A program made the translations under genes and the position numbers. The notes beneath the pieces are model-generated. The model was not told the DNA's origin, made no database searches, and saw nothing but the letters and a program-made list of their open reading frames with translations. From a virus (Duplodnaviria; Heunggongvirae; Uroviricota; Caudoviricetes), in IMG/VR virus record IMGVR_UViG_2874956758_000006, positions 1-24,511 of that record: a stretch of 24,511 nt of DNA, one strand, 5' to 3'. The first letter of the stretch is position 1, and each line of letters starts with the position of its first letter. This document shows, piece after piece, positions 7,007 through 9,975 of the stretch.

Positions 7007-7380
7007 TTATTACCGAAATGCTGGCGTTTGACCGGGCATCGGTAAGGCAGTTCGATAAAGTCGGTCGCCTCCAGATTGAGCGCAGTAATCTCAGCAAGGC
7101 GAACGTCTGCGGTTATTTCGGGTATGAAATACCGGGGGCGGAAGCGCTGGGACTCGACCCCAAAAAACTTTATCAGCTTTACCGTGACCCCGATGAACTG
7201 CGCAAGGCAGTTTCAACCTTCAACAATATTCCCGTCCTGTGCCGACACAAACCCGATTATCCGGGCGCGCCCGCGCGCGAGTACCGGGTGGGGACGACTC
7301 ATGCCAACAGCGAGTTTGACGGTACCTATCTGGTTAACGGCATGTCCATCTGGGACAACTCCGCCATTGAGGTAGCCTGA
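7003..7380 (+). pseudogene. phage head-module gene of unknown function, 3'-truncated by IS600
   Basis: ATGA overlap with upstream stop; reading frame runs into the IS600 left end at 7368 and terminates on an IS-internal TGA (7378-7380), so the last four codons are IS-derived. Confidence 0.5.
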
Positions 7381-7431
7381 GTTTAACGGACACTCCTTCC
7401 TGAAATAGAATGGCATCAGAAGGAGCTAATA

Positions 7432-7694
7432 ATGAGCAGAAAAACCCAACGTTACTCTAAAGAGTTCAAAGCCGAAGCTGTCAGAACGGTTCTTGAAAAT
7501 CAACTTTCGATCAGTGAAGGCGCTTCCCGATTATCCCTTCCTGAAGGCACTTTAGGACAATGGGTTACCGCCGCCAGAAAAGGGCTCGGTACTCCTGGTT
7601 CCCGCACGGTGGCTGAACTGGAATCTGAAATTCTGCAACTGCGTAAGGCGTTAAATGAAGCTCGCCTTGAGCGAGATATATTAAAAAAAGCAAC
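7432..7694 (+). pseudogene. IS600 orfA (HTH transposase N-terminal ORF), split by IS30; resumes at 8916-8957
   Basis: MSRKTQRYSKEFKAEAVRTV...ERDILKKAT then IS30; rejoining the flanks across the AC duplication restores ...KKATAYFAQESLKNTR stop; A6G slippery motif at 7684-7690. Confidence 0.8.
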
Positions 7695-8915
7695 TGTAGA
7701 TTCAATTGGTCAACGCAACAGTTATGTGAAAACATGGGGTTGCGGAGGTTTTTTGAATGAGACGAACATTTACAGCAGAGGAAAAAGCCTCTGTTTTTGA
7801 ACTATGGAAGAACGGAACAGGCTTCAGTGAAATAGCGAATATCCTGGGTTCAAAACCCGGAACGATCTTCACTATGTTAAGGGATACTGGCGGCATAAAA
7901 CCCCATGAGCGTAAGCGGGCTGTAGCTCACCTGACACTGTCTGAGCGCGAGGAGATACGAGCTGGTTTGTCAGCCAAAATGAGCATTCGTGCGATAGCTA
8001 CTGCGCTGAATCGCAGTCCTTCGACGATCTCACGTGAAGTTCAGCGTAATCGGGGCAGACGCTATTACAAAGCTGTTGATGCTAATAACCGAGCCAACAG
8101 AATGGCGAAAAGGCCAAAACCGTGCTTACTGGATCAAAATTTACCATTGCGAAAGCTTGTTCTGGAAAAGCTGGAGATGAAATGGTCTCCAGAGCAAATA
8201 TCAGGATGGTTAAGGCGAACAAAACCACGTCAAAAAACGCTGCGAATATCACCTGAGACAATTTATAAAACGCTGTACTTTCGTAGCCGTGAAGCGCTAC
8301 ACCACCTGAATATACAGTATCTGCGACGGTCGCATAGCCTTCGCCATGGCAGGCGTCATACCCGCAAAGGCGAAAGAGGTACGATTAACATAGTGAACGG
8401 AACACCAATTCACGAACGTTCCCGAAATATCGATAACAGACGCTCTCTGGGACATTGGGAGGGCGATTTAGTCTCAGGTACAAAAAACTCTCATATAGCC
8501 ACACTTGTAGACCGAAAATCACGTTATACGATCATCCTTAGACTCAGGGGCAAAGATTCTGTCTCAGTAAATCAGGCTCTTACCGACAAATTCCTGAGTT
8601 TACCGTCAGAACTCAGAAAATCACTGACATGGGACAGAGGAATGGAACTGGCCAGACATCTAGAATTTACTGTCAGCACCGGCGTTAAAGTTTACTTCTG
8701 CGATCCTCAGAGTCCTTGGCAGCGGGGAACAAATGAGAACACAAATGGGCTAATTCGGCAGTACTTTCCTAAAAAGACATGTCTTGCCCAATATACTCAA
8801 CATGAACTAGATCTGGTTGCTGCTCAGCTAAACAACAGACCGAGAAAGACACTGAAGTTCAAAACACCGAAAGAGATAATTGAAAGGGGTGTTGCATTGA
8901 CAGATTGAATCTACA
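7695..8915 (+). mobile_element. IS30, complete (1221 bp) with 2-bp AC target duplication
   Basis: Left end TGTAGATTCAATTGGTCAACGCAACAG at 7695, right end ...GTTGCATTGACAGATTGAATCTACA ending 8915; AC at 7693-7694 and 8916-8917. Confidence 0.9.
7757..8908 (+). CDS. insI: IS30 transposase (383 aa)
   Basis: 383-aa ORF recognised as the IS30 transposase, contained within the IS30 inverted repeats. Confidence 0.88.
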   Translation: MRRTFTAEEKASVFELWKNGTGFSEIANILGSKPGTIFTMLRDTGGIKPHERKRAVAHLTLSEREEIRAGLSAKMSIRAIATALNRSPSTISREVQRNRGRRYYKAVDANNRANRMAKRPKPCLLDQNLPLRKLVLEKLEMKWSPEQISGWLRRTKPRQKTLRISPETIYKTLYFRSREALHHLNIQYLRRSHSLRHGRRHTRKGERGTINIVNGTPIHERSRNIDNRRSLGHWEGDLVSGTKNSHIATLVDRKSRYTIILRLRGKDSVSVNQALTDKFLSLPSELRKSLTWDRGMELARHLEFTVSTGVKVYFCDPQSPWQRGTNENTNGLIRQYFPKKTCLAQYTQHELDLVAAQLNNRPRKTLKFKTPKEIIERGVALTD

Positions 8916-8992
8916 ACAGCGTATTTTGCACAGGAGTCGCTGAAAAATACGCGTTAATCGAACAATGGCGACAACAATTTCCCATTGAAGCG

Positions 8993-9811
8993 ATGTGTCA
9001 GGTATTTGGTGTATCCAGGAGCGGTTATTACAACTGGGTACAGCATGAACCCTCAGACAGAAAACAAAGTGATGAGCGGCTAAAACTGGAGATTAAGGTG
9101 GCACATATCCGCACTCGCGAAACATATGGAACCCGGCGGCTCCAGACGGAGCTGGCAGAGAATGGCATCATCGTTGGTCATGACCGACTGGCACGTCTTC
9201 GTAAGGAGCTAAGGCTACGCTGTAAGCAGAAACGCAAGTTCAGAGCGACTACGAACTCGAACCATAATCTGCCAGTTGCGCCAAATCTGCTGAACCAGAC
9301 GTTCGCTCCTACAGCACCAAATCAGGTCTGGGTGGCGGACCTGACGTATGTTGCCACACAGGAGGGATGGTTGTACCTCGCTGGCGTCAAAGATGTTTAT
9401 ACGTGCGAAATTGTCGGCTACGCCATGGGAGAGCGCATGACAAAAGAGCTGACAGGTAAAGCCCTGTTTATGGCGCTCAGGAGCCAGCGCCCACCTGCCG
9501 GGCTAATCCACCACTCTGATCGAGGTTCACAGTACTGCGCATACGATTACCGGGTCATACAGGAGCAGTCTGGTCTGAAAACATCAATGTCGCGTAAAGG
9601 TAACTGTTACGACAACGCTCCGATGGAAAGCTTCTGGGGAACGCTGAAAAATGAGAGCCTGAGCCACTATCGTTTTAATAACCGGGATGAAGCCATCTCA
9701 GTAATACGGGAATACATTGAGATTTTCTACAATCGTCAGCGTCGTCACTCTCGTCTGGGGAATATCTCCCCGGCAGCCTTCAGGGAAAAATATCATCAGA
9801 TGGCTGCTTAA
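8993..9811 (+). CDS. IS600 orfB (DDE transposase catalytic ORF; normally expressed as an OrfAB fusion by -1 frameshift)
   Basis: IS3-family integrase-core motifs (WVADLTYV..., HSDRGSQY..., DNAPMESFWGTLK); lies between orfA and the right inverted repeat. Confidence 0.85.
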   Translation: MCQVFGVSRSGYYNWVQHEPSDRKQSDERLKLEIKVAHIRTRETYGTRRLQTELAENGIIVGHDRLARLRKELRLRCKQKRKFRATTNSNHNLPVAPNLLNQTFAPTAPNQVWVADLTYVATQEGWLYLAGVKDVYTCEIVGYAMGERMTKELTGKALFMALRSQRPPAGLIHHSDRGSQYCAYDYRVIQEQSGLKTSMSRKGNCYDNAPMESFWGTLKNESLSHYRFNNRDEAISVIREYIEIFYNRQRRHSRLGNISPAAFREKYHQMAA

Positions 9812-9854
9812 AAAAAGAACAAATGGTAGTGTCCGCTATTGCCAGTACACCTCA

Positions 9855-9975
9855 GTCTTACTGACACCCGTTTTATCTGCCAGTTGTCGAAAAGTTTCTC
9901 GTCCGCTCAGGCGCACGAGTTCCACAATGCGCGCCTTCACTTCTTCCCGCTCTTCTGGTGTAAATACTTTTGCCA
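9855..9975 (-). pseudogene. 5' fragment (about 40 codons) of a replication-operon gene, cut by the IS600 right end
   Basis: ATG 9973-9975 with SD GGAGG 6 nt upstream, reads MAKVFTPEEREEVKARIVELVRLSGRETFRQLADKTGVSK then runs into IS600. Confidence 0.4.

Follow-up and report, generated by a model that had tools for sequence, protein, structure and literature searches.

The window analysed here is a stretch of 24,511 nucleotides (nt) recorded as a virus (IMG/VR record IMGVR_UViG_2874956758_000006), and its source is Shigella dysenteriae GCA_002950055.1, sequence CP026831.1, an assembly named as that species in PMC9830988. It carries an incomplete lambdoid prophage in which a copy of the insertion sequence (IS) IS600, itself interrupted by an IS30, lies between a truncated head gene and a truncated gene of the replication operon, and both genes are read toward it. 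A sequence-only reading of the window had noted this convergence and left an adjacent deletion, an inversion and the joining of two prophage remnants side by side as explanations.

Two truncated genes converging on an IS600 copy

The junctions are formed by the following features.

7003-7367, plus strand: head gene with a DUF2213 domain, first 365 nt of 1350, its open reading frame (ORF) running on to 7380 inside IS600; assigned by Pfam and alignment
7368-9854, plus strand: IS600 copy A (IS3 family, 1264 bp, carrying IS30); assigned by its ends, length, ORFs and identity
7695-8915, plus strand: IS30 (1221 bp, with a transposase ORF of 383 amino acids, aa); assigned by its inverted-repeat arms, length and flanks and by Pfam HTH_38 and rve
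9855-9976, minus strand: DUF977 gene, first 122 nt, last gene of the replication operon; assigned by Pfam DUF977, positions 1-43 of 134

The ORF at 7003-7380 (125 aa) matched positions 1-109 of the 167 in Pfam DUF2213, and the intact gene in Escherichia coli CFSAN029787, which is 1350 nt long (449 aa), is identical to it in register over the first 365 nt. After the shared ...CTCCGCCAT, the intact gene continues with CGCGGGG (from nt 363 onward it reads CATCGCGGGG, also given as CATCGCGGGGATAG), whereas the window continues with TGAGGTAGCC, the first letters of IS600, which supplies the end of the ORF: part of an isoleucine codon, then E, V, A and the stop. At the other end, the DUF977 remnant is 100% identical to the CFSAN029787 gene over the 122 nt up to the break, where the right end of IS600 takes over and adds EVYWQ* to the ORF; from nt 120 onward the gene reads GACCGCTATTCG, and intact relatives are about 130 aa long. 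The earlier proposal that the element cuts a plus-strand head gene on its left and a minus-strand gene on its right is borne out, and neither flanking ORF is naturally complete where it stops, as the intact homologues of 449 and 130 aa demonstrate. Only the coordinates had to be adjusted slightly, as the DUF977 gene starts at 9976 instead of 9975 and IS600 ends at 9854.

Copy A starts with TGAGGTAGCC... and ends with ...GTACACCTCA (over a longer stretch, TGAGGTAGCCTGAGTTTAACGG at the start and ...CAGTACACCTCA at the end), and its termini form imperfect terminal inverted repeats, TGAGGT... and ...ACCTCA, that begin with TG and end with CA. Excision of IS30 together with one AC gives back an IS600 of exactly 1264 bp with an orfA of 100 aa, ending in ...LKKATAYFAQESLKNTR, and an orfB of 272 aa. 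The called IS600 genes matched Pfam HTH_Tnp_1 and rve, and loci annotated as "IS3-like element IS600 family transposase" in E. coli showed 99-100% identity to copy A; the name first given to the element holds, as does the presence of a second IS within it. The nested IS30, with its 1221 bp, terminal inverted repeats, single transposase of 383 aa and 2-bp duplication (AC|AC), is a simple insertion. It entered at window 7683-7700, 5 nt past the A-run (TTAAAAAAAGC) of the frameshift/overlap region of orfA and orfB, lengthening orfA to 122 aa and placing 1.2 kb between the two reading frames. As IS30 splits orfA from orfB, copy A cannot make the fused transposase. Copy A is therefore like IS600 as it is known (IS3 family, 1264 bp, 3-bp duplication) in its length, ends, orfA/orfB layout and identity of up to 100%, and unlike it in lacking the duplication, in being broken by IS30 and in being unable to make its own transposase.

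The triplets flanking copy A are CAT (7365-7367) on the left and GTC (9855-9857) on the right, and the absence of a 3-bp target duplication held on re-inspection. As controls we used two intact 1264-bp IS600 copies of E. coli, L027 and L028, and both carry duplications (GTG/GTG and CAT/CAT, respectively). The missing duplication marks copy A as recombinant or rearranged and is no argument against its being IS600. A single duplication missing by chance would mean little by itself, and the weight lies in flanks that come from different genes on opposite strands.

Other IS elements have landed close to the same gene in other prophages. In CFSAN029787 (L004 941-2271), an IS2 flanked by a GCTGC duplication interrupts the DUF977 gene; its site is 120 nt downstream of the point where IS600 breaks the gene in the window, and the two hits on this small gene are independent. 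In an unrelated prophage of E. coli O121 strain 201805972, the IS600 of control L027 (1437-2700) lies one gene downstream of DUF977 and interrupts a DUF4406 gene, with the normal GTG duplication, a hint that IS insertion recurs in the stretch directly behind the replication operon.

The whole IS600::IS30 arrangement recurs in a second assembly of 4.8 Mb, GCA_031665835.1, with 7 mismatches in 16.5 kb. In the draft of a sister strain, GCA_053979195.1 (labelled S. dysenteriae at NCBI), the contig holding the late block stops 1 bp before the left end of IS600, and the contig holding the early block extends from 5 bp short of IS2b, an IS2 copy described below, to 3 bp short of the right end of IS600. 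A Logan short-read contig also crosses the left junction, 28 bp into IS600. Assembly across the nested elements, for which verification had been advised, is thus reproduced in one genome and supported by the contig ends of another, and both junctions are real and common to a small lineage. Neither was present in any of 5426 complete E. coli genomes. The missing 3′ parts of the two genes, which the sequence-only reading had suggested seeking beside other IS600 copies, were not found: no near-identical S. dysenteriae fragment turned up when DUF2213 residues 122-449 and DUF977 residues 41-130 served as protein queries, and the megabase-scale contigs read of this genome do not encode an identical intact DUF2213 protein. 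The missing halves fit a deletion without proving one, and the reciprocal junctions seem to have disappeared through deletion.

A second, inverted IS600 remnant and the colinear relatives

The other end of the late block lies at the beginning of the window and just upstream of it, where a second IS600 was found in the neighboring 3 kb of the chromosome (L002).

Window -623 to -435 (L002 2375-2563; CP026831.1 ~2922476-2922664), reverse: IS600 copy B, nt 189 to 1 (189 bp), 1 mismatch to copy A
1-917, plus strand: IS2 copy a (IS2a), cut by the start of the window (the full 1331 bp begins 414 bp upstream); a perfect inverted repeat of 15298-16214 (917 nt), with the full element in L002
918-1303, plus strand: lysozyme gene (rrrD-like), nt 113 to the stop; assigned by Pfam Phage_lysozyme and alignments to L001 and L020
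15298-16628, minus strand: IS2 copy b (IS2b), with a 5-bp duplication, CTGGT; assigned by its flanks and an empty site in L017 (E. coli FDAARGOS_944)

The order along the upstream sequence is ISSfl7, copy B, AG plus CGATGGTCTGGAAGGTGTC (lysozyme nt 93-111), IS2a, and lysozyme from nt 113 onward, the left end of copy B adjoining 19-21 bp of lysozyme before IS2a and the remainder of the gene. Two inverted IS600 copies, both with the left end inward, consequently bracket the late block (lysozyme nt ~93 to DUF2213 nt 365), an arrangement such as an inversion between inverted IS copies leaves behind. The three IS600 ends that survive at the locus, in copies A and B, have unrelated flanks: CAT, GTC and GCT. 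ISSfl7, a complete element of the IS5 family (~920 bp), cuts copy B down to 189 bp, and the right end is gone. On its far side come higBA-like genes (toxin-antitoxin) and a rimO-like gene, which makes this a join between the locus and unrelated non-phage chromosome.

The lysozyme gene is interrupted by IS2a, which lacks its usual 5-bp duplication there (window 913-922, L002 2580-2584). The sister draft has the empty site (GTGTCAGCTAC; contig L020, 105-118), the occupied site reads GTGTC|IS2|GCTAC, and one A has either been lost or is ambiguous, shared with the end of the element; the right junction of IS2a was confirmed by a Logan contig (L026). Because the sister draft still lacks IS2a, the element arrived after the inversion. 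An inversion between IS2a and IS2b as the cause of the arrangement was rejected: IS2b is a simple insertion, with its CTGGT duplication and the empty site in FDAARGOS_944, and IS2a is absent from the sister strain, which already has both IS600 junctions. We also rejected the idea that the 21 bp between copy B and IS2a is DUF977 sequence beside the IS2 site of CFSAN029787, which would have made that IS2 a shared ancestral one, as 20 of the 21 bp match lysozyme and the BLAST extension into DUF977 is a chance match of 6 in 9.

Comparison with related genomes, as the sequence-only reading had recommended, yielded two colinear prophages with the uninverted order. The CFSAN029787 prophage, located at ttcA, matches the replication module of the window at 97.7% overall (100% at the breakpoint) and the head module at 99.6%; the early-left region is only 94% identical. 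There, both modules lie on one strand, 13 kb apart, with nin, four tRNAs, holin and lysozyme between them and a full tail module after DUF2213. More generally, complete E. coli genomes that carry the head module also carry the replication module (8 of 8), and in four of these eight the two are colinear and 13-16 kb apart, matching the query on opposite strands, unlike in the window. The convergence of late and replication modules in the window does run against the lambdoid order, as had been claimed. No close relative of the late block was found in a phage collection, the top match covering 25% of it.

The second prophage, in FDAARGOS_944 (L017), is integrated between pgl and ybhA with its integrase beside ybhA, which is the attachment site of the window. 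Window 916-2603 (lysozyme, Rz, DedA) aligns with it in inverted orientation at 99.4%, and window 13147-24511 aligns directly at 90-99%, with the integrase end at 98.8%; set against a prophage native to this site, the late block is therefore turned around relative to the early and integrase region. Only non-phage DNA (ISSfl7 and chromosome) adjoins copy B on its left, meaning that orientation can be checked on one flank only. Likeness to the window is thus divided between the two, replication and head modules being shared with CFSAN029787 (97.7-99.6%) and lysis, early-left and integrase modules (98-99%), along with the pgl|ybhA site, with FDAARGOS_944. Both differ from it in having all modules in one orientation and intact DUF2213, holin, nin and tail genes.

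Origin of the convergent arrangement

Both junctions, a second copy in inverted orientation, references that are colinear and an alignment that is inverted were all observed. They are probably explained by an inversion within one prophage, in which the late block was flipped between two IS600 copies of opposite orientation, along with IS-adjacent deletions, and homologous recombination is the mechanism we favour. We infer the agent, recombination rather than transposase, and the order of events. The ancestral prophage would have had the order int ... cI/cro - ydaT - initiator - DnaB - DUF1627 - DUF977 - nin - Q - tRNAs - holin - lysozyme - Rz - terminase - portal - MuF - DUF2213 - ... tail. 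IS600 copies in inverted orientation may then have come to lie at DUF2213 nt 365 and at the boundary between DUF977 nt 122 and lysozyme nt ~93, and ~6.5 kb, from the 3′ part of DUF977 to the 5′ part of lysozyme (nin, Q, tRNA, holin), would have been lost at this second position. Host homologous recombination between the inverted copies would have flipped ~6.4 kb of phage DNA (~7.8 kb now, with IS2a). In such an event copy A would keep its own left flank (DUF2213) and gain the right flank of the other copy (DUF977), an exchange that would leave it without a 3-bp duplication and with two truncated genes converging on it. Later events would be the entry of IS30 into copy A and of IS2 into lysozyme, the trimming of copy B to 189 bp by ISSfl7, and the loss of the DUF2213 3′ part and the tail genes. 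Reversing the crossover between copies A and B on paper gives a fully colinear remnant, in which an IS600 lies at DUF2213 nt 365 and another connects lysozyme nt ~93 with DUF977 nt 122.

Several observations weigh against this explanation. No single reference prophage holds all the modules of the window, and the single ancestor is pieced together from two mosaic relatives. Copy B has lost its right end to ISSfl7, leaving the reciprocal junctions of a clean two-copy inversion beyond demonstration, and as its left end is flanked by lysozyme and not by DUF977 from nt 123 on, a minimum of one extra deletion has to be assumed. That flank (L002 2564-2571) reads AGCGATGG against AACGATGG in the sister strain, a single mismatch, 2 nt from the IS end, for which this scheme does not account; over the remaining 6.4 kb compared, the sister strain is identical to the late block of the window. 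The late-block contig of the sister draft also reaches 95 bp further, to 2 nt upstream of the lysozyme start, and either the left boundary changed after the lineages split or the sister has a different repeat there.

The strongest competitor, which we nevertheless regard as unlikely, is that recombination between far-apart IS600 copies, in a large inversion or translocation, joined remnants of two unrelated prophages or two distant parts of the chromosome. Lambdoid modules are mosaic, and the identities to CFSAN029787 do differ among the head (99.6%), replication (97.7%) and early-left (94%) regions; E. coli VL7S7 has the replication module without the head module, and the non-phage DNA to the left of copy B means that the locus took part in at least one longer-range rearrangement. 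On the other hand, the late block has an inverted IS600 partner precisely at its other end, as a local flip predicts, the lysis end (99.4%) and the integrase end (98.8%) match one colinear prophage at the same site, and none of the eight genomes with the head module lacks the replication module. The second inverted IS600 and the same-site prophage of FDAARGOS_944 narrow the three explanations first offered to an inversion with deletions in one remnant, and two joined remnants are disfavoured.

A slightly smaller chance falls to a one-step inversion by the IS600 transposase, in which an IS600 in DUF977 would have attacked DUF2213 nt 365 and duplicated itself, with a later adjacent deletion from copy B to lysozyme. 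The geometry predicted is the same as the one seen, that is, inverted copies with left ends inward and no duplication at either. IS3-family elements transpose by a copy-out/paste-in route through a circular intermediate, which is generally known to give simple insertions instead of replicative inversions. Moreover, the GAC predicted beside the left end of copy B is absent, the flank being AGC followed by lysozyme, and since an extra deletion is needed here too, the scheme is no more economical than recombination. An inside-end deletion or inversion in the style of Tn10 was rejected, as by our reasoning it would leave directly oriented IS copies whose unlike ends face the segment, in contrast to what is observed.

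Very improbable is the transfer of the late block, with two inverted IS600 arms, as a composite transposon into DUF977 of a resident prophage. The layout, right end...left end [block] left end...right end, does resemble a composite transposon with inverted arms, but the outer end of copy B is gone, so an outer 3-bp duplication cannot be demonstrated, no DUF977 3′ sequence was found beyond copy B, and at its lysis end the block matches the prophage that is native at pgl|ybhA; composite transposition by pairs of IS3-family elements is also rare. We give little credence to the broader proposition that either IS600 itself made the inversion in a single intramolecular duplicating event or the IS600-bracketed late block is a mobile composite unit that could move phage structural genes. 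Least credible of all are junctions produced by reads misjoined across nested repeats, for although short reads span nested IS elements (2.5 kb) poorly, two independent multi-megabase assemblies concur, draft contigs break exactly at both junctions, and a short-read contig bridges the left one over 28 bp.

The remaining prophage and the place of the probable inversion in Shigella genome decay

Beyond the junctions, the window carries the following features.

1300-1776, plus strand: Rz-type lysis (spanin) gene; Pfam Phage_lysis
1859-2371, minus strand: gene for a membrane protein with a DedA/VTT domain; assigned by domain
3207-3758, plus strand: terminase small subunit; Pfam Terminase_2 for the terminase region (3207-5380)
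3761-5380, plus strand: terminase large subunit; label from gene position and from phage annotations under the nucleotide matches
5380-7006, plus strand: portal gene lacking its 3′ end and Mu-F-like head morphogenesis gene lacking its 5′ end; Pfam Phage_portal_3, 2-261 of 357, and Phage_Mu_F
9992-10753, minus strand: DUF1627 gene; Pfam
10920-12312, minus strand: DnaB-type helicase gene, split by a frameshift; Pfam, ORFs of 318 aa and 162 aa
12302-13057, minus strand: HTH_36 initiator-like gene; Pfam
13148-13570, minus strand: ydaT-like gene; Pfam
22222-23457, plus strand: integrase; Pfam
~23693-24511, plus strand: chromosomal ybhA; matches to E. coli genomes

In the late block, the terminase region is 99.6% identical to the CFSAN029787 prophage. 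Compared with that prophage, a 635-bp deletion at window 6426-6435 (L001 gap 12037-12671), bounded by the imperfect 10-bp repeats GGCGCAGGCA and GGCGCTGGCA, removed the 3′ part of portal and the 5′ part of MuF. The region at 1761-3426 is absent from the CFSAN029787 prophage and partly common to that of FDAARGOS_944; its genes (DedA/VTT and an ORF of 182 aa) lie on the strand opposite to the late genes and are moron-like. From left to right on the minus strand, the right part of the window reads DUF977′, DUF1627, helicase, HTH_36, ydaT and a cro-like gene, followed on the plus strand at the far right by a cI-like gene, DUF1391, IS2b, Rha, YdaE, RecE, an AAA_24 ATPase, integrase and ybhA. The helicase homologue in CFSAN029787 is a single gene of 1404 nt. 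The immunity region at 13672-14606 (cro-like, cI-like) has no nucleotide match in either reference prophage, its neighbors matching at 94-98%, and this is a typical swap of the immunity module.

Integrase and ybhA mark the end of the prophage at the pgl|ybhA site, and its lambdoid character follows from the integrase at the attachment site, the divergent cI- and cro-like repressors, the replication operon, and the lysis, packaging and head modules, as assigned by Pfam and by identity to annotated E. coli prophages taken module by module. It is incomplete: holin, Q, nin and tail genes are missing, portal, MuF and DUF2213 are truncated, and the helicase is split. The locus has no function and is a scar in an irreversibly defective prophage.

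A literature search on the accession CP026831 found no mention of it, and we found no description of this particular junction; the phenomenon itself is of a known kind and routine for S. dysenteriae. IS600 is one of five IS expanded in Shigella, where rearrangements as well as deletions between IS copies that are homologous are driven by IS (PMC7373316), and 42 IS-associated inversions of 0.7-400 kb have been described among S. dysenteriae type 1 genomes (PMC7819885). Our case resembles such IS-bounded inversions and deletions (Yang et al. 2005 as cited in PMC7819885; Hawkey et al. 2020, PMC7373316; Svab et al. 2021, PMC7819885) in having copies of an expanded IS600 inverted at its breakpoints, in the lost duplication, in its size, which falls within that range, and in affecting a decaying prophage. 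It differs from them in lying inside a prophage instead of between chromosomal loci and in being overlaid by IS30, IS2 and ISSfl7. Similarly, the non-inducible Stx prophage of S. dysenteriae that is flanked by IS600 (PMC7819885) is comparable as a lambdoid remnant with IS600 inside and essential late genes gone, whereas the remnant described here, located at pgl|ybhA, is without toxin cargo in the window, and its late block is inverted.

The finding is of use mainly for annotation: it accounts for the convergence of two truncated phage genes on an IS. Apart from completing the ruin of a prophage that was already defective, the event is without consequence for function. No new question arises from it. 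The case serves as a worked example of how layered IS events (IS600, IS30, IS2, ISSfl7) can be reconstructed from sister strains and colinear relatives, and it adds one more documented case to the role of IS600 in the decay of Shigella genomes.

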